A DNA stretch of 64,000 nt, taken from the sequence record MT701590.1. The stretch is one strand, 5' to 3'. Below are positions 27,396 through 55,736 of this stretch, piece after piece. This stretch comes from Klebsiella phage Miami. Both the position numbers and the translations under genes were made by a program. The notes beneath the pieces were generated by a model. The model worked only from the letters and a program-made list of their open reading frames with translations. It had not been told where the DNA came from and ran no database searches. The number at the start of each line of letters is the position of its first letter. The first letter of the stretch is position 1.

Positions 27396-27451
27396 GATTC
27401 AGGCTTAATATTCGTGGAGTGTGATACTCACTCCATCACGAGGTGAGATCA

Positions 27452-30400
27452 ATGAACTATCCTAATATTCCCGAATACCGTTTGGATATCACGGGGAAGA
27501 ACCCAGAAAACTTGATTCCTTTCGAGCATCTTCAAAGGGAAGATAATGATCGAAAAATGATCGTCGTCCCACGTCACGCTCCCTTCTTTATCGACAGCGT
27601 GATTTTGAGCTTCCCTGACGGCACCCCAATGGTTTACGGAACCCATTATGAATTCTTCAACATCATGGGTGAGCTTTCCAGAAGAACCGGTAAGGCGGTC
27701 GGTTGTTTTATTCGCATTTTGGATAAAACCATAACTCGGTTTAACGCCCGCTATCAAACAGTAGGTTCGGTATCTCTCTTTGATAAGAGTTTCCTGGATC
27801 TCTATAATACCGTCATAGACGATGAGCGAGCTGTTTGGTTCGACGATATCGCCAACAAGCCTATATTGTTTGATCCAGAGCAGCATGGTCATGACGTCAG
27901 GTACGGAGTATACGCATTTAAAGACCTTGCAGATGCTTTCGAGCAGATGGTCGCTAACACCGTAGGTGGGGAAGGTTATCACGCCCCGTACGAAGAATTC
28001 TTTGTTCAGCGTATCAACAACGCCATTAGTTACCTTTCACAAGTACAGAGTCGTTGCATCGCACTCATTAACGAACACGCCAGTAACAAGATCAACGTGC
28101 ATGGGATCGATAATGTTAAAGTGGGATTGGGTAACGTTGATAACATCGGGACTTATACTTCCGATAATTGGGGAGATCCTATCGATGATAAACATCGCAT
28201 AACCCCAGGGTATCTGAAAAAGTTAGCTGAAAACACCACTGTGGATCTCAGTAACTTGGTCCAACCCGGAGTTCTCCCAATTGCACGCTACGGTGAAAAC
28301 TTTTACATCCCTCCGGTCATCGATGGATCTTTTAAAGGTGTCGGGACCCGTCAACCTTGGCGAGTGGCCTGTTTAGAAAGAAACGGTTATTTAGTAGCAA
28401 TAGGTAATTACAAGGATGTCAATACGGACGTTTTGATGTACATGTATAACAAAACCCCGTTTGTTTCCCCGGCCAATTCTGCTAACTGGATAAATACACG
28501 TTACGAATATAAACCCACTCGTGCCGTTGAAGATGACGTTAAACTCACCACAGTTATTAAAGGCGGTGATTACCGTTGGATGATCGTAGGTAACGACCAA
28601 ACCAACAAGTGGTATGTAGTTAACTGCAATTCCACATTCAATCCGGTTAGTCACGTTCTCACGCCAATCAGCAATGTGGACTTTTTCTCCAACATTAGTC
28701 ATATCAGAATGTCCGTTTGCGGAGAGAGTATTTATCTGTTCAAGATCACGGATACTCAAGCTGATGGACGTAAATATGTGACGATGAGGAAGATCGACGT
28801 AAGCTCTGTTGATGTTAACACAGAGAGTGTCGCTCTGACCACACCTTCTCTTATTTACACCGATTCATCTAACGCCAGTAAAACATCCACCACCGGCGTT
28901 TTCGATCCTTTCGTTGTTACCAAAGACGGGTCTAATAAAGTCACTAAAGTGTTGGGTAGCTTTAACCCAGTACTGGACTATATTGAAATGGAAAGGGATA
29001 TTCATATTGAAATGATTCCTGATCCAACTAACCCCACAGTAAGTTATATGCGTTGGTGGACCCCCTGTATGCATCATCTGGGGACTAAGGCAGTAACGAC
29101 GACTTACTCCCCGTCCTGGAAATTGCAGGAGAGTGGTGGGTTTACAACGATGACGTGGACAAAAGGACTGGGGTCCGCTACGATGAACATCACTGCGTGG
29201 GATTTAAATTACGCGCCGTGGATGGGTAATCAAAATACAGCGAATACCGACTTCTTCAAGCAAACCTCATCGTGGTTCCACTCACCGGCAATGGGTAACG
29301 GGTTTACTGGTTCGTCTTCAATACTGTCCAATGATGCAAGATTCTCATGCGCGTCGACTCACTGGAACTTCTTCCCGTTATTGACAGCAACGAGCATGTC
29401 GGACTTCTTTACGTCTAGTGACCCTTCCACATTTACGACTGCCGATCCGGCAATAACAAATATGGATGTTAATGAAGCCGGTGGTTATAACCTGAGAACT
29501 TTACAGTGTGGTATTACCAATACCACCGTGTACGGGTCAGCTCCCGCTTCCAGTTGCCACTCTACTTTACCCTTTACTGAGGCGAATAACTCGATAACAC
29601 ATTATGAACTTATTAAGTCAGAAGTTAATGACGATACCTTTGTTCATACGGCTAAATTGAGAACGGGTGATAGAACAACGGCTTCTGTATACGACGCCAA
29701 CACTTATTACCATATGAGTTACACCAACGACATTTATAAAACCAACATCCCTCCAAGGGGTGTACGTGTTTCTTACGTTGATGAAATGAATACGACTAAT
29801 AAGGGAGAGACGTTCTTCTCAGTGACTGGCGGGACGGTTTATAGTCTTGGTACCGGGCTTCAGGATAATCTGTTAACTCACTCTTTCACTACGACCAGAG
29901 ATTCTTCTACCAGGACGTTGTCGTTTAATCCATCTCTGTATGTTCAAATTACTAATGCTTTGGTTTTGTCTTTAGTAACAGCGAACTTCCCAAATGCAGC
30001 GGCTTACTATCAGAAAGCTTGGACTTTGTTATGGGTGCCAGGGAAAGAGAGTATTATAGCTCCTATGCTGATCGTAGAGTGGATGGGTACGGGTTCTGAT
30101 ACTAATGCTTATATCGGCGTGATGACGTTAAACGTGGTTAAAAACCCAACGCTGGCTGCTAACCAAACTACGACTGTGAATGGTGTAAAAACCTGCGTAA
30201 TGAATGTAGGTGATTTGACAGTAGTCAACAAATATACTGTGACGAACGGAACCTATTCTGGTGATCGTTCTTGGTTTGATGCGATTGGTAACCACTACAT
30301 CAACTCAGGATATTTTACTGTTTATCGCAATGCGTCTGGCGAAGTCTCTTTCTATTGGGGTTCTACCAATTCTAAGAACTACGGAAGCGCGACCAGTTAT

Positions 30401-31066
30401 GGTGTTGCTAAAACGGCGTACCTGTCTGGTAAAATGTCGTCAGCAACCGTCATTTCCGCTATTAACAATTACCCTGGCGGAAGAGATATGTTGGGGTCTG
30501 TCGTCTATGCATTAAAAGGCGTCGGTCTATTACTGATTTCCGATACGATGGCTACCGATATCTTTGTGGGTGGCGGCATTACTCCGGCTAAGCTGGCGGG
30601 TAGTACCTACCAGTCAGTTCTGGATGGATATGCTAACACAGCGCTGTTAGGATCGTTCTACATCGTTGCCGACATCATCCCGGTCAATCAATGGACGTTG
30701 TTCTTCTCAGCGAGTAAGATCGTTTTGAAAGGAACCTATTTCGAACTCCCCGTTGGTACTCTGACATTAACAGATTACTTCACCAATGTTCAAAATAAAA
30801 CGTTCTACTTGTTTTTAAAACTCACTGAAGGTAGTCCTGTGTATGAACTGTCATCAACCATGTTGTCGGAAACTTCGACATGTATGTTGATAGCGACGGT
30901 TACTACTGACGCCTTAAGCATTGTTTCTGTAGATACACAAAAGGTCTTTTCAATGACCGGCTATCGCGTGTCGTCTCAAGCTATCGGTTCGATCATACCT
31001 GGGTCGACCGGGGGGATCAACGAATTGGGCGAGACACCGTGGCTGTCGTCTACCTTGGTTGATTAA
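27452..31066 (+). CDS. tail fiber protein 2 (about 1204 aa)
   Basis: AGGTGA Shine-Dalgarno before ATG 27452. N-terminal VVPRHAPFF domain. GLGNVDNIGTYTSDNWGDPIDDKHRITPGYLKKL collar motif. Ser/Thr/Asn-rich distal region. Confidence 0.7.
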   Translation: MNYPNIPEYRLDITGKNPENLIPFEHLQREDNDRKMIVVPRHAPFFIDSVILSFPDGTPMVYGTHYEFFNIMGELSRRTGKAVGCFIRILDKTITRFNARYQTVGSVSLFDKSFLDLYNTVIDDERAVWFDDIANKPILFDPEQHGHDVRYGVYAFKDLADAFEQMVANTVGGEGYHAPYEEFFVQRINNAISYLSQVQSRCIALINEHASNKINVHGIDNVKVGLGNVDNIGTYTSDNWGDPIDDKHRITPGYLKKLAENTTVDLSNLVQPGVLPIARYGENFYIPPVIDGSFKGVGTRQPWRVACLERNGYLVAIGNYKDVNTDVLMYMYNKTPFVSPANSANWINTRYEYKPTRAVEDDVKLTTVIKGGDYRWMIVGNDQTNKWYVVNCNSTFNPVSHVLTPISNVDFFSNISHIRMSVCGESIYLFKITDTQADGRKYVTMRKIDVSSVDVNTESVALTTPSLIYTDSSNASKTSTTGVFDPFVVTKDGSNKVTKVLGSFNPVLDYIEMERDIHIEMIPDPTNPTVSYMRWWTPCMHHLGTKAVTTTYSPSWKLQESGGFTTMTWTKGLGSATMNITAWDLNYAPWMGNQNTANTDFFKQTSSWFHSPAMGNGFTGSSSILSNDARFSCASTHWNFFPLLTATSMSDFFTSSDPSTFTTADPAITNMDVNEAGGYNLRTLQCGITNTTVYGSAPASSCHSTLPFTEANNSITHYELIKSEVNDDTFVHTAKLRTGDRTTASVYDANTYYHMSYTNDIYKTNIPPRGVRVSYVDEMNTTNKGETFFSVTGGTVYSLGTGLQDNLLTHSFTTTRDSSTRTLSFNPSLYVQITNALVLSLVTANFPNAAAYYQKAWTLLWVPGKESIIAPMLIVEWMGTGSDTNAYIGVMTLNVVKNPTLAANQTTTVNGVKTCVMNVGDLTVVNKYTVTNGTYSGDRSWFDAIGNHYINSGYFTVYRNASGEVSFYWGSTNSKNYGSATSYGVAKTAYLSGKMSSATVISAINNYPGGRDMLGSVVYALKGVGLLLISDTMATDIFVGGGITPAKLAGSTYQSVLDGYANTALLGSFYIVADIIPVNQWTLFFSASKIVLKGTYFELPVGTLTLTDYFTNVQNKTFYLFLKLTEGSPVYELSSTMLSETSTCMLIATVTTDALSIVSVDTQKVFSMTGYRVSSQAIGSIIPGSTGGINELGETPWLSSTLVD

Positions 31067-31114: not shown

Positions 31115-34100
31115 ATGTCTGACTTTAAAATCCTATCTTTCGATCCCAGAGGGGATAACGCAGATAATCTGTTAACCGAGCAGGTGACGTTGGATGACAC
31201 CACCCTCGATTACATTAAACCGGATTACAGTCCATTTTATTCTAACACTGTGGTTATTACTGATAAAGATGGTCAAGTGAGGAATGAAGGGACAGATTAT
31301 GTTCTGGAAGGTTTAGTCGTCCCACTGGTAAAAACTTCCGGTAAGGATGTAAAGGCTTACATCAGAATCGTCAATACAGAACTCTATGCTAAGTCTCCAC
31401 TGAGCATTCGGTATCATTCTTGCGGGATTAACCACTTTCCGAGAGATATGGTTAAGAACACTCCAACCGGGTCAGAAGGTAACAACCTCCCCGTCGATTG
31501 GAATACGCAAGTTTTAGGCAAGCCCGATTCTTATCCTTTTAAACCGCATATTCATAACGTTGAAACTGAAATAGCGGCGTGGACTGATTTGGCCGATGAA
31601 ATAGAAGAAATTTATCAGTACAGAAAAAATCACATCCTCAGCAAATACCAAGAGTTAAAAGGTCTGAGCGATGCAGTTTGGACTGCGACTGATCTCACCG
31701 CCAAGCAGCTCCGCGATAATGTGATGAATCACGATCGTGATCTCGATAACCCTCATGACGTTGATGCGGCTGACGTTTTACTCGGTAACGTAGACAACTT
31801 TGCTACAGCAACCGCCAATGACGAACTCCTGGGCTCGGCTGATAAGTTCTCTACCCCCCTAGGAGCGCAGTCTATACTTAATAATTCATTACAAAGTACG
31901 GACAGTTATCATCACATTGGTCGTCTTCCCCTTTCTTATTACGGAACTGATTTTTATATCCCCCCTCCGATAGAGGGAGACTTTAAAGGGATGTGGACTA
32001 ACTGTGAAACGGCCGGATTCTGTTTGGAAGATAACGGAACGTTAATGATGCTCGCCAATGCGTCTGACGGAAAGCACAACGGTCTGTTTTACACCACTAT
32101 TGAAAATTGGGATAGCACCAATCCAAAAGTCAGATATACCGGCTATCCTTACCAATGGGGGAATTTGGATTACCGTAAACTCAACGCCATTGTTGAAGGC
32201 TCTGGTAAAGACGTGATGATCGTAGGGAACCGTGTTTCTCAGGATTGGTACATTACTCTGACCAAAGGGACCTTCGACCCAGCGAAACACAATCTGCACA
32301 AAATCTCTTTCGATACCACCCCTCCTGGGATGTGGGACAATTATGTCGTTAACGAAAGATTCCCTTGGTTCGATATCAGCAAGGTTTTTGTTGCAGGGAA
32401 CTATGTTTGGCTGATGTATCTCAACCATCAGTATTTTAGCAATGAGTTGAGGATGGCTAAGGATCTTTATTTTTATCGCATCCCTTTATCAGCCTTTGAT
32501 ACTGACGGTCCGTTGGTATTCCAGGCGGTAACTCTGACAAGCGCGCATAACGTTTTCGGGACATTATTCTCTAACGTTAAACCGCTTAGAATGACGGATC
32601 CTGTTAAGAAGTCCAACGGGTATTATAACAATAGTTGGTGCAGAACTTCCCTGGATCTAACGTCTTCATTCCAGTGGATAAAATCAGTTATTATCCCGAC
32701 AGATTACGATACAACGTCTAACAAGAAGCTGATCTATTTAGAAACTAGAATGCATGACTATTATTATAATGGTTCTGTTTATAGTTTCTATTCTCCGGCC
32801 CTGCAGTTCATTTATATCTTTGATCCTGACAATAATACGTTTTTACTCCATCCTGATAGCGGAAGAAACTACCTAATTGATTTGGGGAATACCTCCAATA
32901 ATCCCCAGAGAGTAGAGGGAAGAATGGGTAATGGGGATGACTGGGTCAACATAGGTAGGAACCAAAGACCTAGTATCTACGCGATGAATGGCTATATTCT
33001 TAAGTCACAAATAAATCAGACTTACACCACCTTTAAATTAAAAACTGATTTACTCAGTTGGTTCAAAGACCCTTATTCGGGAGCAACGGGTGGGACTAAT
33101 GCTCTGACGGTAGTTAAAAAGTCTTATCCGATGGTAGAGCCCCCTGGCGCGGTTCAATCAAGCTATTTCGATGGCGCTGAAATATATGGAGTTTATGGTC
33201 CCCTTCCATCCAGCTCCACCAACGTCGCGACCAAAATGGGTTTATACCTCAGAACCGGATTGGGGGACTACGCCAATCACCCTGAGATGAGATGGGACAA
33301 CACTAATCTCATGATACGTCTGCCCAGCAACCAGGACTTTAAGATAGCGGGTGGTGGAAACTATGCAAGATGCAGTGTGACCGGTGATGCCGCAGCATTA
33401 ACCGCAGCAGGGACAACGATAGGGTGGACTGGATTCAGCGTTTATGAGGATAGGGGTGTTTTCGATAAATTCACCAACTGGCCCGCTCAGCCAAGTAATC
33501 AGGTTGCTTTACCCGGGAACATCACCTGGGATACAAGTGTTCCTGGAGTAGCGACAGCCCAGGTGAATTCTACAGTAAATTACCCAACCACCATTATCAA
33601 CCAGATTAAAGCGGTGTTGACTAATGGTATCGGGGCGACGAAATATTCGTCGTTTACACTTTACGATTTCACCTATTCCCCGTTTGCGGACGTCTATTCG
33701 GTAGCCACCCTTTTCTATACGAAGCCGGGATCTGCTGGACTGTGGACAAGGTTTATTTTGTTTAAACCTACGGTAACAACGTCCGGTACCGTAAAAACTG
33801 TGACCGCTTATTCCGTTCTGTACAACTCCGGTGAAGTGGTTAACGATGGTCCGAGGTTCTTCGCGAACATTGACATGAGCTATTCTAGAGGATTCGACAC
33901 TTATCCCATAGTGGAAGTCTATGTCAATCGAACCACCGGGATCCATTATTACAACATTTATCCGGGCGTTTGTTTCTATCCGGCAGGAAGTACTGGGGCG
34001 TACGCGGTTTCTTATATCGTACAGTCTCGTATACAGCTACAGCGGGCGACATCCAATAACGCGATTACTGTTACCGAAAACACAACAAGACCTACTTGGT

Positions 34101-34627
34101 ATAACGACGAATATTACGTTACCATGATTCCTAAGGTAGGGAGGGTCACTGTTTACGGCATTGATGTGCTAACTGAGATGGCGAATACTGGATCGATCGC
34201 AACAGTAAATGGAACGCGATATGTGACCGCTCACACTTATCCGGCGGATAACTGGTATGTGTATTTTACCAATGCGATTAACGTAACGATAGAAGGCGGC
34301 AGTTATCTCATGCCGACGGGCAGTATATCACTTTACGACATTGTAAGTAATCCCGTTGATAAGACGTTCTACGTTTATATCAGGTTGAACGGAACCAAAG
34401 CGGAATATTTCGTTACTACCAAAAAGCTTTACGTTTCTAGCAAAATGTTGTTTGTTGCAACGATAACGACTAACGATAAAGGGATCAGCAGCATCGATCT
34501 TCTCCAACCGATGATGGTGGGGGATTTGGTTCTCTCTAACGTACGTCGTGGTCAAGCAATTCCTGTTGTGGACGGGTCGCTGGGTCAAGAAGCAACTGTG
34601 GTATGGAAACGCAGCCAAGATAATTAA
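31115..34627 (+). CDS. tail fiber protein 3 (1170 aa)
   Basis: Related N-terminal domain (VVPLVK...). LLGNVDNFATATANDELLGSADKFSTPLGAQSIL collar motif. Similar length and composition to fiber 2. Confidence 0.7.
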   Translation: MSDFKILSFDPRGDNADNLLTEQVTLDDTTLDYIKPDYSPFYSNTVVITDKDGQVRNEGTDYVLEGLVVPLVKTSGKDVKAYIRIVNTELYAKSPLSIRYHSCGINHFPRDMVKNTPTGSEGNNLPVDWNTQVLGKPDSYPFKPHIHNVETEIAAWTDLADEIEEIYQYRKNHILSKYQELKGLSDAVWTATDLTAKQLRDNVMNHDRDLDNPHDVDAADVLLGNVDNFATATANDELLGSADKFSTPLGAQSILNNSLQSTDSYHHIGRLPLSYYGTDFYIPPPIEGDFKGMWTNCETAGFCLEDNGTLMMLANASDGKHNGLFYTTIENWDSTNPKVRYTGYPYQWGNLDYRKLNAIVEGSGKDVMIVGNRVSQDWYITLTKGTFDPAKHNLHKISFDTTPPGMWDNYVVNERFPWFDISKVFVAGNYVWLMYLNHQYFSNELRMAKDLYFYRIPLSAFDTDGPLVFQAVTLTSAHNVFGTLFSNVKPLRMTDPVKKSNGYYNNSWCRTSLDLTSSFQWIKSVIIPTDYDTTSNKKLIYLETRMHDYYYNGSVYSFYSPALQFIYIFDPDNNTFLLHPDSGRNYLIDLGNTSNNPQRVEGRMGNGDDWVNIGRNQRPSIYAMNGYILKSQINQTYTTFKLKTDLLSWFKDPYSGATGGTNALTVVKKSYPMVEPPGAVQSSYFDGAEIYGVYGPLPSSSTNVATKMGLYLRTGLGDYANHPEMRWDNTNLMIRLPSNQDFKIAGGGNYARCSVTGDAAALTAAGTTIGWTGFSVYEDRGVFDKFTNWPAQPSNQVALPGNITWDTSVPGVATAQVNSTVNYPTTIINQIKAVLTNGIGATKYSSFTLYDFTYSPFADVYSVATLFYTKPGSAGLWTRFILFKPTVTTSGTVKTVTAYSVLYNSGEVVNDGPRFFANIDMSYSRGFDTYPIVEVYVNRTTGIHYYNIYPGVCFYPAGSTGAYAVSYIVQSRIQLQRATSNNAITVTENTTRPTWYNDEYYVTMIPKVGRVTVYGIDVLTEMANTGSIATVNGTRYVTAHTYPADNWYVYFTNAINVTIEGGSYLMPTGSISLYDIVSNPVDKTFYVYIRLNGTKAEYFVTTKKLYVSSKMLFVATITTNDKGISSIDLLQPMMVGDLVLSNVRRGQAIPVVDGSLGQEATVVWKRSQDN

Positions 34628-34672: not shown

Positions 34673-37600
34673 ATGATCATTTTAGATGAAACCATTCCTC
34701 CTAATGGTCAAGAGGATGAGCGCTTCGGTCTTTTACTTTACGCGTTAACCGACTACGGGATTAAAAGGGAGTTACAACACGTCGCCAGTGTGGCGGTGTT
34801 GACCGATAAAGTTGCCGAAGCGAATGCTAAGATGACATCGGTCAGCTCAGCGGTAAACGATGCTCTTGACGCCCACATTGCGACAAAAGGCCCCATCCAT
34901 GGGGAGACCAAGGAAACGATAGGTCTGGGTCTTGTTGACAATTTACGGACAGCCACGTTAGAAGAACATGTTGACGGTAGCGACGACCTGTTCTGTACTC
35001 CTGCTGGAGTAAAATACGCGGCTCAGTTTTTGGTTGAACCTGATTACACCGGGTTTATTCCACAGACTGTACTCCCTATTGCTTATTTCAAAAGACTGAC
35101 TGGGGATCTGAGCATTAACTCAATCTCTTTCAGTCCATGGACTCAGAGTAATAAGAAAGGTAACCTGTACATCACAGACGGTGCTTATTACGTCAGCTTG
35201 TTAAGTAAGAACGGCGGCGGGGTTAATTACCTGAGTGATCTTTTAACATCAAGGGATTTGATGTACTTCACACCTAGTGGCGGTACGATTGTACCTAAAC
35301 TGGCATACGGCTGGAACGCTAAGACGGGATACCAAACCCTGAGTGATGGTTCGAAACAGCTTACCTTTTTCGATTACACTCATAATGGCACTGGTGGGGA
35401 GTTCGCTCTTAATTTTTCGGGGTCTGTAACAGGCGACTATCTGTCGACCTTATTCGATCCTTTACTCGACACGTCTTCTTTAATAGGCGGGCTACGCTTA
35501 ACTCAGGCTGGATTAAATGTCACACTGACGACCATTACCCAGCCAGATGAGTCGGTCGCAACGCTACTGGTGGACAACACTACCGGTTTCAGTTTTAACG
35601 CCACGGGACCGAAGGGAACGGTTAGAACAGGGACGATTAATAACCTCATTCCTTTAGCCGACTTCATCACGGTAACTGACGCTACGGCGGTTACAATTGA
35701 CCCGACCTACACAGCCATTGACCAAACCCACGGCTATGGGAATATGGAATGGGAGGTTAAAGGGAAATCTGCGATTCTTTACACAGATGCTATCCTGAGG
35801 ACAACATTCCAAGGAGTCGTTAAGAAGATCGTCGCCAGAATAGCGTTAAGGTTGACGATAAGTGGGTCCACTTACACGATCGCTCCCTTATCTCAAGTGA
35901 GTATGGCGACGATAACTGCTGGCGCTGTTGCTGTATCCGGGAACATCCTTTTTGAAGAAGAAATTGATGGCGCTTTACACCCAGTTTACGGAAAAGGTCC
36001 GTTCTTAAGCGAGGGCGGGCACGCTACGTCAATGGCTTCCAACCAAAGCTTCTTCTTAAGGGCATTTACTCACGATCTAACCAGCCTCGTTGACCTGGCT
36101 AAAAACTATCACGAAACCCTTTCTCTCTCTGGAGAGTATACAAAGGAATATCCGGGTAGTTTTGCGGCTCCGATAGGGGTGAACATTAAACGCTTCATAC
36201 CGTTTAATAGTACCGCTTCGGGGTTAAAGGTTTTAACCTATCCGATGGCCAATACCTCAGAAGACTACTACGGGGTATTAAGTTGGGATAGTCCTCAGAT
36301 TCTCCAGTCGTCTAAGAACAAGCCGCTGTATTATCGGTTCAAGCAGGCGAGCTCTTTAACCAACTTTACATTAAGCTCCACCATACCGACCAGGCTGATT
36401 GTTAACTCCGGTGCTGATGGCAGCGTTACTGTGAGGGGGTTGAGTTTCTTACGCAGTGATTATACCGCCGGTACGGGTAAACTGGTCATTACGGAGAATG
36501 AGGTTAAAGCGTCTGAAACTTGGGCGTTGGACGCCGACTCCATTACCACAATGGAATCTATCTTGTCGACGTTCTCCACCAGAAGCCACACAGCGTATAC
36601 TTCTGCTGGGGTGGCGTACGACGCAAGTAAACAGTCAATGAGTTGGTCTGTTGGGATTTTGACGACCTCTGACGACATTACCGCAGTAACAAGATGTGTT
36701 GTGTTATTATCGGATGGTTGCGGTTATGTGGGGTGTCAAATCGTTCCTACGACGCCTAATAGCGGAACAAGAACGTTTACCATCAACAGAGCGTCATTGG
36801 GCACACTGACATCCATGACTTTTGGGATGGCTGCTGTTCCTGATTTTAGTGCGGCCGAATATCTGACACCGCCGGCGTACAACGACATAATGGTATTAAC
36901 TCGTTCCGATAATTCGTTAGAGATCGCATTTAATAACGCGTTTAAAACGAAATACGGGATGGCGTCATTCTTATATTCCGGAACAACGCTGGCACTGGAT
37001 AAAATAGAAAATCCAAGAGTCAGTGTAGGGAATTTCCCCATCATCGGGAAACGTGGGTGTTGCCCTATCAGTATTCCTTACTACGGTATTTTCAGGATGA
37101 CGGATAACGAGGAGGAGTTTTTCAACGCCAACCTCAATCGTTATCTTAACCAGTATGGCGATTTAACGGACGACGTAGTCACTATGGGGGGTTCGGATTA
37201 TCACCTAATCAGAATCCCTGCCGGGACCAAAGTGTTCTTGGATGGTCGAGAATTCCAAATGATCTCCGGTTTAGTCGTCTACGCTCAGGTAGGAGTGACG
37301 TCGTATATTTATCTCACAGCGGCGGCCGATAACGTGATGGCCGAGGCCAGAACCGTAAAATCAGAACCTGCCGTTGATGAAATCATTTACGCAGTAATGG
37401 ATGAAGCAGGGAATCTCGTTATCAACGACACGTACACTGTCATTGATGGGTTCGCGGTATCCTACACTCGTCAGGGTAGTTCTATCCCGTATACTACGGG
37501 TTACCCTATGGATCTTGGCGAAACACTCTTCTTTAAAACAACCTTCGGGGATCCTGATCTTGATGTAATCATGAACTCAACCATGCCAGAGTTTGGCGGG

Positions 37601-37888
37601 ATGGAGTACATGCCTGACCTTGATGAGGAGATCAACGACATTATTCCTTCTTGGGATAATCTCGAAGATCAAGCCATGGACCTCATGATGAACCAGATTC
37701 TCCCAGAGGATATTGGAACATTGGAGGAAAATATCGATGAGTGCATCAACGAAATTCAACCTGAGTACGTCGAAGACTACAGAGATTCCAACGACATCAT
37801 TGTTAACCAATTGATGCCGGAAATCGGTATGTCTCGATTTGTATTGACGGATTATATCGTTAACCAGATCTTACCTGATTCGGAATAA
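34673..37888 (+). CDS. tail fiber protein 4 (1071 aa) with a C-terminal acidic repeat array
   Basis: AAGAGGT Shine-Dalgarno. GLGLVDNLRTATLEEHVDGSDDLFCTPAGVKYAAQF collar motif. The last 110 aa or so carry four or five repeats of (V/M)N(Q/E)(I/L)(L/M/Q)PE. Confidence 0.65.
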   Translation: MIILDETIPPNGQEDERFGLLLYALTDYGIKRELQHVASVAVLTDKVAEANAKMTSVSSAVNDALDAHIATKGPIHGETKETIGLGLVDNLRTATLEEHVDGSDDLFCTPAGVKYAAQFLVEPDYTGFIPQTVLPIAYFKRLTGDLSINSISFSPWTQSNKKGNLYITDGAYYVSLLSKNGGGVNYLSDLLTSRDLMYFTPSGGTIVPKLAYGWNAKTGYQTLSDGSKQLTFFDYTHNGTGGEFALNFSGSVTGDYLSTLFDPLLDTSSLIGGLRLTQAGLNVTLTTITQPDESVATLLVDNTTGFSFNATGPKGTVRTGTINNLIPLADFITVTDATAVTIDPTYTAIDQTHGYGNMEWEVKGKSAILYTDAILRTTFQGVVKKIVARIALRLTISGSTYTIAPLSQVSMATITAGAVAVSGNILFEEEIDGALHPVYGKGPFLSEGGHATSMASNQSFFLRAFTHDLTSLVDLAKNYHETLSLSGEYTKEYPGSFAAPIGVNIKRFIPFNSTASGLKVLTYPMANTSEDYYGVLSWDSPQILQSSKNKPLYYRFKQASSLTNFTLSSTIPTRLIVNSGADGSVTVRGLSFLRSDYTAGTGKLVITENEVKASETWALDADSITTMESILSTFSTRSHTAYTSAGVAYDASKQSMSWSVGILTTSDDITAVTRCVVLLSDGCGYVGCQIVPTTPNSGTRTFTINRASLGTLTSMTFGMAAVPDFSAAEYLTPPAYNDIMVLTRSDNSLEIAFNNAFKTKYGMASFLYSGTTLALDKIENPRVSVGNFPIIGKRGCCPISIPYYGIFRMTDNEEEFFNANLNRYLNQYGDLTDDVVTMGGSDYHLIRIPAGTKVFLDGREFQMISGLVVYAQVGVTSYIYLTAAADNVMAEARTVKSEPAVDEIIYAVMDEAGNLVINDTYTVIDGFAVSYTRQGSSIPYTTGYPMDLGETLFFKTTFGDPDLDVIMNSTMPEFGGMEYMPDLDEEINDIIPSWDNLEDQAMDLMMNQILPEDIGTLEENIDECINEIQPEYVEDYRDSNDIIVNQLMPEIGMSRFVLTDYIVNQILPDSE

Positions 37889-53164: not shown

Positions 53165-53218
53165 TACTCCTACTCCCGTAATAGGGAGTAGGAGTACTCT
53201 TATGAATTTATTTTTAAT
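53165..53218 (+). terminator. intrinsic terminator
   Basis: Stem tactcctactccc / gggagtaggagta with loop gtaat, followed by a T-rich run. Confidence 0.55.
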
Positions 53219-53530
53219 TAATTAATGTTAAACCTAGGATAGTATAGTATAAATAGCTCTAGCGTAATATATTAGGCCTTCGGCCTAAAGGGCTAGGGTA
53301 AGTCAATTCGTTCGTTTCAGCATCAATCAAGGTATTCGCTACGCTCATACTTTCTTATGCTTACACTCACCCATGCAACCTGGAGAGAAACCCCGACTGA
53401 ACAAAGTTGTTTATTCCTTCTCAGGGGAATAAACAGTTCGTCGGCTAAAGACATAGGATGTTTTATGATCAGTAAAGAAATACGATAATCTAAACTTATT
53501 AGTTCAAACACTGTAATCTAGGAGATAACC

Positions 53531-53647
53531 ATGAATATCGTAATGCCATTAAAGTTACTCGGAGGGTTACTTATCCTGGGGGTGAGTTTTGGATTACTGG
53601 TTTATCTCATTGTTAAACTCTCCGTTAAAATGGCGTATAAAAAATGA
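53531..53647 (+). CDS. small transmembrane peptide (38 aa), below the cutoff of the ORF track
   Basis: AGGAGATAACC Shine-Dalgarno. Sequence MNIVMPLKLLGGLLILGVSFGLLVYLIVKLSVKMAYKK. Stop overlaps the next start (ATGA). Confidence 0.35.
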   Translation: MNIVMPLKLLGGLLILGVSFGLLVYLIVKLSVKMAYKK

Positions 53648-54111
53648 GTGAAGAAGAGCTGTCATTAGGTTATATTTCGGTTAAAGTCATTCCCACTCAG
53701 GAAGGGATTCTTAAAGATAAGGTGTTGGATGCAGGCTGTCTTCCGTTAGATGAAGGGTCGTACCACGCTACGCTTATTTTTGATATTCATCAGGATGGTG
53801 TCATTCCCAACGTACCTATGATTCCTGAAAAGATCTTCGAGGGAAAGGTTATTGGAATCAAGGAACTCGGAGAGCGTAAAGGAGATATTATCTCAGCCGT
53901 TGTACTCGAACTGGATTCTCCTGAACTGATAGAAGAACACGATCGGTTAATACAATGTGGGTATGGTCATTCCTATCCGGATTACATCCCCCATATTTCG
54001 CTCGCTTACAAGGTCACAGAAGAGCAAATGGAAGATCTCAAACGACAGTGTGAGTCGCTTATTGGTAAAACGTTCTACTTATCCGGAGAAAGCATCGACT
54101 GGATAGATTAA
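53644..54111 (+). CDS. 2H-phosphoesterase superfamily protein; Acb1-like candidate anti-CBASS nuclease
   Basis: Two HxT/S motifs at the spacing expected for the 2H fold: YH41-A-T43LIF and PH117-I-S119LAY. About 155 aa, similar to T4 Acb1 (about 152 aa). Confidence 0.5.
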   Translation: MSEEELSLGYISVKVIPTQEGILKDKVLDAGCLPLDEGSYHATLIFDIHQDGVIPNVPMIPEKIFEGKVIGIKELGERKGDIISAVVLELDSPELIEEHDRLIQCGYGHSYPDYIPHISLAYKVTEEQMEDLKRQCESLIGKTFYLSGESIDWID

Positions 54112-54124
54112 GAGGTAAAGGGGT

Positions 54125-54553
54125 ATGTCTGATAAACTTACTGTATCACTTTTTAAGCTTATAAAAAACCACACTGGGTTAACGTTAAAGGAAGGCGAAT
54201 TCTCTTTAACGGGAGAAAGACCCTTTTGGTTCAGAATACCTCCTTTTCCCCTTAACCCCAGTTCAAGAGAGAGATTGAGAGATCTCTTTCAAGATAACTT
54301 TGATGTGACTGTAGTTGATTATGTTGACGATTACCAGATCATATTCAGCCAAATTGAACCAACAACTTCTCGTCGTATAAAACGCGTCAGGAACATCCTA
54401 GATGTGTTAGAAAGAGAGTACGGTAGAAACTGTCTCAGACCAGAAACCGGTAGAATCTTGAGCGGATATTACTCTACTCATAAAGACAGAATAGAACAGG
54501 AAGAACTTGCTTATAATAAAAAGATTTTAAATGAAGCGTTACGAAGACGCTAA
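54125..54553 (+). CDS. hypothetical protein (142 aa)
   Basis: ORF with GAGGTAAAGGGGT Shine-Dalgarno. Confidence 0.4.
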   Translation: MSDKLTVSLFKLIKNHTGLTLKEGEFSLTGERPFWFRIPPFPLNPSSRERLRDLFQDNFDVTVVDYVDDYQIIFSQIEPTTSRRIKRVRNILDVLEREYGRNCLRPETGRILSGYYSTHKDRIEQEELAYNKKILNEALRRR

Positions 54554-54594: not shown

Positions 54595-54918
54595 ATGACG
54601 TACGATGAAGTCGAGAAATATCTGGAAATGGGAGAGGCTATCTCTAAGGGTAGTTGGAAAGCTAACGAAGCGGTTTATTTAGAGCCGACAACGTTACTTA
54701 ATCCAGCTCACTATCCTGAGTGTTTAAAAGCCGCAGGTATTAACTCCCTTTTGAGAGTCGATCGGCATTTAGTGCGTGTTACCGCGAGTAACACTGTTGA
54801 GCGTTTTATTCCCAACATTGTAGAAAGAAAAGAAAACGATTGGTACGTTAAGAGTTACACCTTCGAACAAAATAAAGCATTGCCAGAACACAATCAAACC
54901 CAAGAAGAAGCTGCATAA
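54595..54918 (+). CDS. DUF2829-type small protein; Tad2-like candidate anti-Thoeris sponge
   Basis: N-terminal YDEVEKYLEMGEAISKGSWKANEAVYLE matches the DUF2829 pattern (F.EAL.aLK.GkkV.RkgW....a.i.L). C-terminal ENDWYV matches its terminal DW motif. Confidence 0.4.
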   Translation: MTYDEVEKYLEMGEAISKGSWKANEAVYLEPTTLLNPAHYPECLKAAGINSLLRVDRHLVRVTASNTVERFIPNIVERKENDWYVKSYTFEQNKALPEHNQTQEEAA

Positions 54919-54923
54919 TAACA

Positions 54924-54935
54924 CCCCCCCCCCCC
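54924..54935 (+). repeat. C12 homopolymer tract
   Basis: Twelve consecutive C residues, 6 nt after the stop codon and 14 nt before the terminator hairpin. Confidence 0.9.
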
Positions 54936-54949
54936 TACACTTAGATTTT

Positions 54950-54988
54950 AACCAGGAGAGGCGTAAGCCTCTCCTGGTTTATTTTACA
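54950..54988 (+). terminator. intrinsic terminator
   Basis: Stem aaccaggagaggc / gcctctcctggtt with loop gtaa, followed by tattttac. Confidence 0.65.
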
Positions 54989-55053: not shown

Positions 55054-55269
55054 ATGAATGGTCTTTTTGGAACAGGTTGTTTGCTGTTAGGTGCTGCGGT
55101 GTATTTCTTCCTGAAGTACCTGGAACTGCGTAAAGATTTTAAAGAGAATAAGATTAAAGACAAGGGTCGGGCGTCTGGGTATAAAAATGCCTATTTCTCT
55201 TTAACCATTTGCGTTTTGGGCCTGGGCGTCTTTTTAATGGTTAATGGGACTCTGTTGGAGATCAGATAA
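55054..55269 (+). CDS. small membrane protein (71 aa)
   Basis: Two hydrophobic segments (LFGTGCLLLGAAVYFFL and YFSLTICVLGLGVFLMV). Confidence 0.35.
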   Translation: MNGLFGTGCLLLGAAVYFFLKYLELRKDFKENKIKDKGRASGYKNAYFSLTICVLGLGVFLMVNGTLLEIR

Positions 55270-55736
55270 TGGATATCGTTATGCTGACCGACGCAGAAAC
55301 AGTTTTGGATGTCGTCGATGCAGAGGAATACTATCTTCCTACGGGAATTATGCGGCATTGGATACAGATGGCTATCCGAAGAGGGCCTGGGCATTGTAGG
55401 GCATTTTGGTTTGAAGGTGGGATCTTTGTTTTGACCAAAATACCCTTAACGAATAGTAATACCTGGAACGCTTCGATTTGGATTTCTGAAGATTACAGGC
55501 GAAAAGGACTGGCCAAGCGAATAACCGTTTTGGCTTTGGATATGTTCAGACTGGCTAACGCGACTCTACGTTTCCATCCTTGGGATCAGCGTAGCGTTGC
55601 ATTCTTTTCTAATTTGGTTAACGAGGGATTGTTGACCGGGAAGAATTTTGGGGATATTGGGTCAAGACGTCTTTTATCTTCTGAACTCCTTAAAGACCCT
55701 GAGACTTTTACATCCCAGCGCGTTGAGTTAGTTTAA
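55269..55736 (+). CDS. possible GNAT-type acetyltransferase (155 aa)
   Basis: RRKGLAKRI fits the GNAT motif A pattern (R/Q-x-x-G-x-A/G). Otherwise weak. Confidence 0.3.
   Translation: MDIVMLTDAETVLDVVDAEEYYLPTGIMRHWIQMAIRRGPGHCRAFWFEGGIFVLTKIPLTNSNTWNASIWISEDYRRKGLAKRITVLALDMFRLANATLRFHPWDQRSVAFFSNLVNEGLLTGKNFGDIGSRRLLSSELLKDPETFTSQRVELV

Follow-up and report, generated by a model that had tools for sequence, protein, structure and literature searches.

An Acb1-family 2H phosphodiesterase gene lacking the T4-type lid in a small-ORF cassette of Klebsiella phage Miami

The window analysed here, a stretch of 64,000 nucleotides of the Klebsiella phage Miami genome (MT701590.1), contains an acb1-like gene on the plus strand (53644-54111 including the stop codon), which starts with an ATG in the ORF list and encodes a single-domain protein of the 2H phosphodiesterase type with a length of 155 amino acids. 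The two histidine motifs pointed out in the earlier note are found at the expected places both in the ORF list and in the DNA itself: the codons for H41-A-T43 (53764-53772, +) correspond to H44-x-T46 of T4 Acb1 in the alignment with the T4 protein, and those for H117-I-S119 (53992-54000, +) correspond to H113-x-T115 in the BLASTP alignment. By our own arithmetic on the composition of the 155-aa sequence (five histidines and 9.7% serine plus threonine), about 8% of such proteins would hold at least two H-x-S/T motifs by chance, so that the motifs alone are weak evidence for a 2H enzyme. It is through homology and selection that the observation stands far above chance, namely through the match to the Pfam Acb1 model PF23474, the recovery of 282 relatives, the conservation of residues and the codon bias.

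Regarding selection, the gene is carried by five related phages (KPN8, phiKp_32, BUCTxx100, VB_ZK_P1 and YC1), and codon positions were counted in a cassette alignment of the 64-kb stretch with four of these five (five sequences). Within acb1, 83 nucleotide columns vary and are distributed 7/6/70 over codon positions 1/2/3, which identifies a gene under strong purifying selection. The gene call for Miami in GenBank begins at an internal GTG (V27, position 53722) and therefore omits the first beta-strand and the conserved tyrosine. Since the first 26 codons are also under coding selection (variable sites 2/2/14 in the same alignment) and fit the family alignment, the correct gene call is that of 155 amino acids.

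Besides acb1, the locus comprises three further ORFs and two hairpins. A hydrophobic 38-aa ORF with a single transmembrane-like segment (53531-53647, +; ORF list) ends in a TGA that shares bases with the acb1 ATG, and reading the DNA directly bears out the ATGA overlap proposed before. This ORF is intact in all five aligned phages (variable sites 7/2/11 by codon position) and is an annotated CDS in KPN8, BUCTxx100 and VB_ZK_P1. An AGGAG Shine-Dalgarno sequence (53520-53524, +), kept in five of five phages, is located 6 nt upstream of it, and the five-phage alignment contains no Shine-Dalgarno sequence ahead of the acb1 ATG. The retention of the small ORF and of its AGGAG, together with the missing Shine-Dalgarno sequence of acb1, fits translational coupling, and judged from this arrangement the translation of acb1 is probably coupled to the 38-aa ORF. 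On the other side, 14 nt downstream of acb1 and between the same two hairpins, follows a 142-aa ORF (54125-54553, +; ORF list), which was found in the five sister phages only (variable sites 9/1/28) and has no match in Pfam or NCBIfam. The last member is a Tad2-like (DUF2829) ORF of 107 amino acids (54595-54918, +). Its match to PF11195 reaches 23.4 bits and thus remains below the cut-off of 25, covers positions 1-72 of the 73-position profile and reappears in the precomputed annotation of three of four close relatives. A PDB sequence search with this ORF gave no matches, tblastn matches came from the five sister phages only, and an AlphaFold2 model built from five near-identical sequences was unusable (pLDDT 45.9). 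Going by the profile match, it is possible that the 107-aa ORF represents a second anti-defence gene of the cassette.

The first of the two hairpins (53165-53196, +) is located after the preceding gene and consists of a 13-bp stem followed by a T-rich stretch (-27.7 kcal/mol, z -6.75). It shows compensatory changes, with both arms altered together in KPN8, and probably marks the 5' limit of the transcription unit. At the opposite end, a terminator scan detected an intrinsic-terminator-like hairpin of 13 bp with eight G-C pairs and a T-run (54950-54979, +; -30.2 kcal/mol, z -8.07), which is kept in five of five phages and closes the four-ORF cassette. The position of all four ORFs (38-aa, acb1, 142-aa and Tad2-like) between two strong hairpins suggests a single transcription unit. 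Scanning for sigma-70 promoters revealed six sites compared with 7.1 expected in shuffled sequence, hence no excess; phiKZ-like phages transcribe their genes with RNA polymerases of their own. We also considered a structured and unusually conserved RNA in the 376-nt upstream intergenic region and rejected it, as its core shares 93.7% identity with VB_ZK_P1, compared with 94-98% for the neighbouring ORFs. Folding z-scores of this region are modest (-1.75 and -2.46), there is no credible Rfam match, and it is single-copy.

In a wider context, the phage is a phiKZ-like jumbo phage; its major head protein of 728 amino acids falls in PHROG 3231, it encodes a homolog of the PHIKZ128 virion protein (E 6.5e-90), and the nearest genomes are Klebsiella, Raoultella and 'Stenotrophomonas' phages of 250-257 kb. 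In the study defining the nucleus-forming phage family, Miami figures as a phage distantly related to RAY. Among the signalling defences, type III CRISPR is the one most relevant to nucleus-forming jumbo phages. Upstream of acb1 are ligA, rnhA and a gene for an HslU-like ATPase, and around it are about 20 small ORFs that match no family. This is a variable small-ORF region whose content differs between relatives, in line with the accessory island assumed previously: in phiKp_32 a 297-aa ORF is missing and a TnpB element is inserted 170 nt upstream of the cassette, and in the L003 contig, which harbours the only divergent homolog (59% identity), acb1 directly follows rnhA with no 38-aa ORF in front. 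A link between the HslU-like ATPase and the phage-protease triggering of CBASS was discarded, because the paper in question deals with the T4 prohead protease.

The assignment to the Acb1 family is based on several searches. In the Pfam search, the protein matches the Acb1 model PF23474 with 47.7 bits (cut-off 27, E 1.7e-12), there is no match to PF02834 (LigT), and no NCBIfam model fits the protein or its neighbours. A single-sequence search of the PDB at E<0.001 retrieved solely Acb1-type chains, namely Acb1 of Erwinia phage FBB1 (7T26) and the BCSR5 phosphodiesterase (9Q2G/9Q2Y). A word-indexed homolog search gave just two relatives, and an exhaustive HMMER search of 1.84 billion representatives was used instead, which yielded 282 relatives at E<=0.001. 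From these, 105 were taken for the family alignment and for a profile made without T4; this profile finds FBB1 Acb1 at 5e-21 and BCSR5 PDE-9 (9Q2G) at 9e-20, and each of the 105 relatives individually matches PF23474. With T4 57B (NP_049750, from NC_000866), BLASTP aligns 70 amino acids at 37% identity (E 2e-8) including the second catalytic motif, where PHISLAY of the Miami protein pairs with PHITLSY of T4. Taken together, the Pfam match, the T4 57B alignment and the uniform behaviour of the relatives support the identity as an Acb1-like 2H phosphoesterase that the earlier note had proposed.

The existing labels tell a different story and would fit an enzyme of RNA repair or end-processing, of the LigT, 2'-5' RNA ligase or 2',3'-cyclic phosphodiesterase type. 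GenBank names the Miami protein 'RNA ligase' and KPN8_60 'putative RNA ligase', the protein matches PHROG 755 (E 6e-24), which is likewise labelled 'RNA ligase', and there is a weak match of 19.7 bits to PF13563 (2_5_RNA_ligase2). However, this match stays under its cut-off of 27, whereas the Acb1 model is well over its own, and T4 57B bears the same legacy label 'RNA ligase' in RefSeq, although it has been shown to be Acb1, specific for CBASS signals (Hobbs et al., 2022; PMC9117128). Moreover, the surroundings of acb1 contain neither a gene for an RNA ligase or polynucleotide kinase nor a tRNA gene. Therefore, we regard a role in RNA repair as quite improbable.

The fold points in the same direction as the family searches. 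An AlphaFold2 model based on the 105-sequence alignment (pLDDT 91.7, pTM 0.86) exhibits the 2H-type beta-alpha-beta pattern and thus the compact 2H phosphoesterase fold of the Acb1 family rather than any non-2H fold, just as had been predicted. In the structure comparison, the model is closest to 9q2y_B (BCSR5 PDE-9; score 15.6, 146 residues, 2.6 Å) and to 7t27_A (FBB1 Acb1 with cGAMP product; 14.9, 133 of 140 residues, 2.4 Å), and the best cellular or eukaryotic-viral 2H enzyme reaches 12.1 or less. The top five entries of a Foldseek search were the same as in this comparison. The last strand of the model extends to residue 154, and only residues 1-6 and 155 are located outside the terminal strands.

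For the comparison of individual residues, we verified that the numbering of Hobbs et al. (Y12, H44, T46, W74, F107, H113, T115, E141 and W147) fits the T4 Acb1 sequence. All four positions of the HxT/HxT tetrad of the Acb1 family are filled, with serine in place of the second threonine: across the 105 relatives H41 (T4 H44) is invariant, T43 (T46) and H117 (H113) are each conserved in 99%, and the position of S119 (T115) is occupied by serine in 77% and threonine in 23%, and thus by one of the two in all. Of the four T4 aromatics that stack on the ligand, two are kept, Y10 for Y12 (91% of the relatives) and Y111 for F107 (aromatic in 102 of 105, 97%). The position of W74 is taken by L75-G76, with glycine in 83% of the relatives, and W147 has no aligned counterpart because the protein stops short of it; a tryptophan close to the C-terminus, W153, aligns with T4 P142. 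The acidic reader of the adenine N6 (T4 E141) has D152 in the aligned column, where the relatives show glutamate in 48% and aspartate in 11%; the assignment of this position is based on the alignment.

The most obvious deviation from T4 concerns the termini. Behind the glutamate aligned with T4 E138 follow only 6 residues compared with 14 in T4, so that in the alignment the protein ends at the equivalent of T4 K144 and the C-terminal lid of T4 and FBB1 (residues 145-152, including W147) is absent. At the N-terminus, 9 residues precede the conserved tyrosine, which is under the approximately 15 residues of a PDE-9-type N-terminal lid. An equally short C-terminus is present in 85 of the 105 relatives, and 44 combine it with a short N-terminus; the lid thus characterizes the T4 subgroup rather than the Pfam family, and the short-short architecture defines a stable lid-less subgroup instead of a truncated copy. 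Conversely, the T4-type traits tend to co-occur in the 105-relative alignment, i.e. a long C-terminus with '(D/N)W', an aromatic residue at 75/76 and HxT as second motif. The statement that the protein has the fold and size of T4 Acb1 stands as far as the 2H fold and the length of about 150 amino acids are concerned, but the T4-type lid and W74 are both missing. Without them, a T4-like fold and size is no guarantee of the T4 substrate range.

It is conceivable in principle that a protein of this kind is a catalytically dead or lid-less binder which sequesters nucleotides, or even a decaying gene without function, as the terminal lid it lacks is reported to be necessary for the function of T4 Acb1 in vivo. 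In the published work, T4 Acb1 deprived of its lid had lost the ability to trigger Panoptes, and the authors interpret this as a requirement of the lid for catalysis (bioRxiv 10.1101/2025.08.21.671373). Nevertheless, PDE-9 without its lid still cleaves 3'3'-cGAMP, and specificity was attributed to the 2H core instead of the lid, with the substrate range tracking variation of the core (bioRxiv 10.1101/2025.08.21.671373). Together with the retention of all four catalytic residues, the 7/6/70 distribution of variable sites and the 44 relatives of the same short form, this makes a dead or decaying protein very improbable.

Based on these data, we consider it likely that the protein is an active member of the Acb1 family which uses adenine-containing cyclic di- and trinucleotides as substrates and shields the phage from CBASS. 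By homology with T4 and FBB1 Acb1, H41/T43 and H117/S119 would face each other across the cleft of a U-shaped beta-sheet, and the two His-x-Thr/Ser motifs would perform a metal-independent acid-base catalysis. In such a reaction the 2'-OH of an adenosine would attack its own 3'-5' phosphodiester to form a 2',3'-cyclic phosphate intermediate, which would then be hydrolysed to a linear product with a 3'-phosphate. This chemistry can be assigned with good confidence by analogy to the reference enzymes, and the exact substrates with moderate confidence; the likeliest ones are the products of host CD-NTases 3'3'-cGAMP, cUMP-AMP and cAAA, and cyclic oligoadenylates of type III CRISPR may be further substrates. 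Destruction of the signal would keep the CBASS effector off, so that the cell would not be killed before the phage has finished. A literature search for enzyme or phage-genetic data on the protein or its close relatives (at least 30% identity) gave no published results.

With respect to the substrates, one correction has to be made. The earlier note had stated that Acb1 cleaves the nucleotides of both CBASS and Pycsar; the first holds true, and the second is wrong, since according to the source data Acb1 leaves the cUMP-driven activity of PycTIR unaffected, and cCMP and cUMP are handled by the unrelated MBL enzyme Apyc1 (PMC9117128). Apyc1 has a metallo-beta-lactamase fold, and the Miami protein has a 2H fold.

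A further reading, which overlaps with an anti-CBASS function and does not exclude it, is that of a 2H phosphodiesterase directed at some other messenger, either the cyclic oligoadenylates of type III CRISPR, a more restricted set of CD-NTase products not including 2'3'-c-di-AMP, or an undescribed one. Both known lid types and the stacking residue W74 are absent, and members of the Acb1 structural group also cleave type III CRISPR and housekeeping messengers, whereas two structural groups of viral 2H phosphodiesterases cleaved 0 of 18 messengers (Doherty et al., bioRxiv 10.1101/2025.08.21.671373); an intact tetrad is therefore no guarantee of anti-CBASS activity. Besides, all subfamily homologs among the 40 of 124 records listed come from genomes between 186 and 360 kb in size, many being phiKZ-like. 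On the other hand, the closest structures and the Pfam model represent Acb1-type enzymes, all of which cleave 3'3'-cGAMP, the position of E141 is kept as aspartate and, out of four stacking aromatics, two are retained. Weighing both sides, we consider a different messenger rather unlikely as the actual target, and cleavage of CBASS signals remains our preferred interpretation.

Within the Acb1 interpretation, we would also raise, as a speculative idea of low probability, that short termini, glycine at the W74 position and HxS as second motif characterize a minimal lid-less branch with a substrate profile that differs from T4 Acb1. One possibility is that such enzymes spare 2'3'-c-di-AMP and would thus escape Panoptes, which senses promiscuous Acb1 enzymes. 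They may alternatively prefer the cyclic oligoadenylates of type III CRISPR, among the few defences that reach nucleus-forming phages. As to the missing lid, the long loop 47-64 or a partner encoded by the cassette, either the 38-aa membrane peptide or the product of the 142-aa ORF, could possibly replace it.

The identification of the gene as acb1 is correct, but it has already been made by automatic annotation. In a Foldseek search of predicted viral structures, the best named matches bear the name 'Anti-CBASS protein Acb1'. One of them is the Miami protein UniProt A0A873WM59, with 128 aligned columns at 100% identity, and it is followed by further matches named Acb1 from the jumbo phages RisingSun, fHe-Yen9-04, pEt-SU, JA29 and PaBG. 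A0A873WM59 equals GenBank QPB09175.1, a 129-aa protein that is 100% identical over residues 27-155 and belongs to the same 90% protein cluster. Hence one protein carries the names 'RNA ligase' in GenBank (QPB09175.1) and 'Anti-CBASS protein Acb1' in UniRef, and the sister phages have 'hypothetical protein' or 'putative RNA ligase'. Annotation tools for anti-defence genes already report acb1 in jumbo phages. As family, fold and mechanism are established, our analysis adds little in scientific terms; the practical gain is that the labels 'RNA ligase' and 'hypothetical protein' and the N-terminally shortened gene call of Miami are due for correction. If the activity we infer holds true, this family of Klebsiella jumbo phages would possess a counter-defence to CBASS, an immune system common among bacteria. 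Members of the family such as phiKp_32 were isolated as potential therapeutic phages for carbapenemase-producing K. pneumoniae, and such an activity would matter for host-range prediction and for the risk of a block by Panoptes-type systems, which respond to Acb1 activity. What remains of interest are the lid-less Acb1 subgroup and the cassette neighbours of acb1.

Among the known systems used for comparison, the cellular 2H enzymes (LigT/2'-5' RNA ligase, plant CPDase, Usb1 and the central domain of AKAP18) are larger (170-230 aa) and give lower scores. BCSR5 PDE-9 from a Burkholderia phage (PDB 9Q2G/9Q2Y) belongs to the Acb1 structural group and shares the short C-terminus without a C-terminal lid. 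In contrast to the Miami protein, with its 9 residues before the tyrosine and 6 outside the first strand of the model, PDE-9 carries some 15 residues of N-terminal lid and a tryptophan near the W74 position, where Miami has glycine; identity in the structural alignments is 14-17%. Compared with T4 Acb1, the spacing between the catalytic histidines is 76 residues instead of 69, the second motif is HxS, L75-G76 stands for W74, the lid (145-152) is missing, and identity is approximately 21% in the structural alignment to FBB1 Acb1. Nevertheless, T4 and FBB1 Acb1 (PDB 7T26/7T27) and the Miami protein are all compact single-domain 2H proteins of about 150 amino acids with two H-x-T/S motifs in equivalent places, the tyrosine of the first strand (Y10 = Y12), the aromatic residue ahead of motif 2 (Y111 = F107) and an acidic residue at the adenine-reading position (D152 = E141), and all are encoded by phages among small accessory genes.

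Concerning the extent of acb1, the Acb1-family 2H phosphodiesterase gene of the window (53644-54111, + strand), the public gene call of Klebsiella phage Miami, whose protein is identical, covers only 129 aa and starts at an internal GTG (window 53722), which corresponds to V27 of the ORF. This shorter call is devoid of the first beta-strand, which bears a Tyr conserved in the family. When the window is aligned with four related phages, codons 1-26 of acb1 already display a codon-position bias, with 2, 2 and 14 variable columns at positions 1, 2 and 3, respectively, and this bias supports the longer call of 155 aa. Comparing five Acb1 proteins, we found three positions that stand out from otherwise highly similar sequences (94-99% identical elsewhere): the five sequences show S, S, A, T and D at residue 39 (window 53758-53760), which precedes the catalytic His41 by two positions, while residues 96 (53929-53931) and 103 (53950-53952) occur in three states each, I/A/T and I/K/R. 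Judged from these sequences, the variation at the three residues may reflect local diversifying selection in this small sample of five.

Directly 3' of acb1 follows an ORF of 142 aa (54125-54553, +) that matches no family of either Pfam or NCBIfam; in tblastn, homologs were detected exclusively in the five sister phages. Its variable sites are distributed 9/1/28 over the three codon positions, which indicates purifying selection, and by its position it is a candidate for an uncharacterised anti-defence gene. The next ORF, two genes downstream of acb1 (107 aa, 54595-54918, +), reaches 23.4 bits over the whole profile of the Pfam Tad2-like model (Thoeris anti-defence 2, DUF2829), just short of the cut-off of 25, and three of four close relatives carry the Tad2-like label in precomputed annotation. 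Should this assignment hold, the cassette would combine acb1 with a nucleotide-sponge gene. Between the stop codon of the Tad2-like ORF and the terminator hairpin lies a run of 12 C (54924-54935), which varies from 10 to 12 in the sister phages due to either slippage or sequencing error.

On the upstream side, a 13-bp hairpin (53165-53196) is located 3' of the gene preceding the cassette, and KPN8 shows compensatory changes in both arms. A second, small hairpin, GGCC-UUCG-GGCC, is found at 53275-53291 after an AT-rich stretch. Both hairpins may represent terminator and promoter or leader elements of the cassette. In the sister phage phiKp_32, an IS200/IS605-type element of 1.39 kb with a TnpB gene (L004 7747-9138) interrupts the intergenic region 170 nt upstream of the cassette of the 38-aa ORF and acb1; the corresponding site in the window (53360/53361) is empty.

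Besides, the unit after the cassette terminator contains an ORF of 155 aa (55269-55736, +), which scores 19.8 bits with the GNAT acetyltransferase family PF00583, just below the threshold of 20.7, and is annotated in KPN8 as putative acyl-CoA N-acyltransferase. Further ORFs, three in tandem and each about 1070-1210 aa long (27443-31066, 31115-34627 and 34673-37888, all +), have the N-terminal module PHROG 2163 in common, the first two also a long C-terminal region (PHROG 3573). All three have the appearance of paralogous proteins of the tail-fibre or receptor-binding type.

Among the tblastn matches listed for the Acb1 protein (40 of 124 records), all phage genomes are 186-360 kb in size; represented are giant phages of the phiKZ-like, Schizotequatrovirus-like and other types, with hosts among Vibrio, Erwinia, Pseudomonas, Aeromonas and enterobacteria. 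Based on these 40 records, this Acb1 subgroup appears to be concentrated in very large phages. In addition, the Acb1-family profile, built from 105 relatives without T4, matches the C-terminal part (residues ~481-600, E 7e-8) of the cyanophage Pam3 portal protein (PDB 8hds), which suggests that this portal protein carries a fused 2H-like domain.
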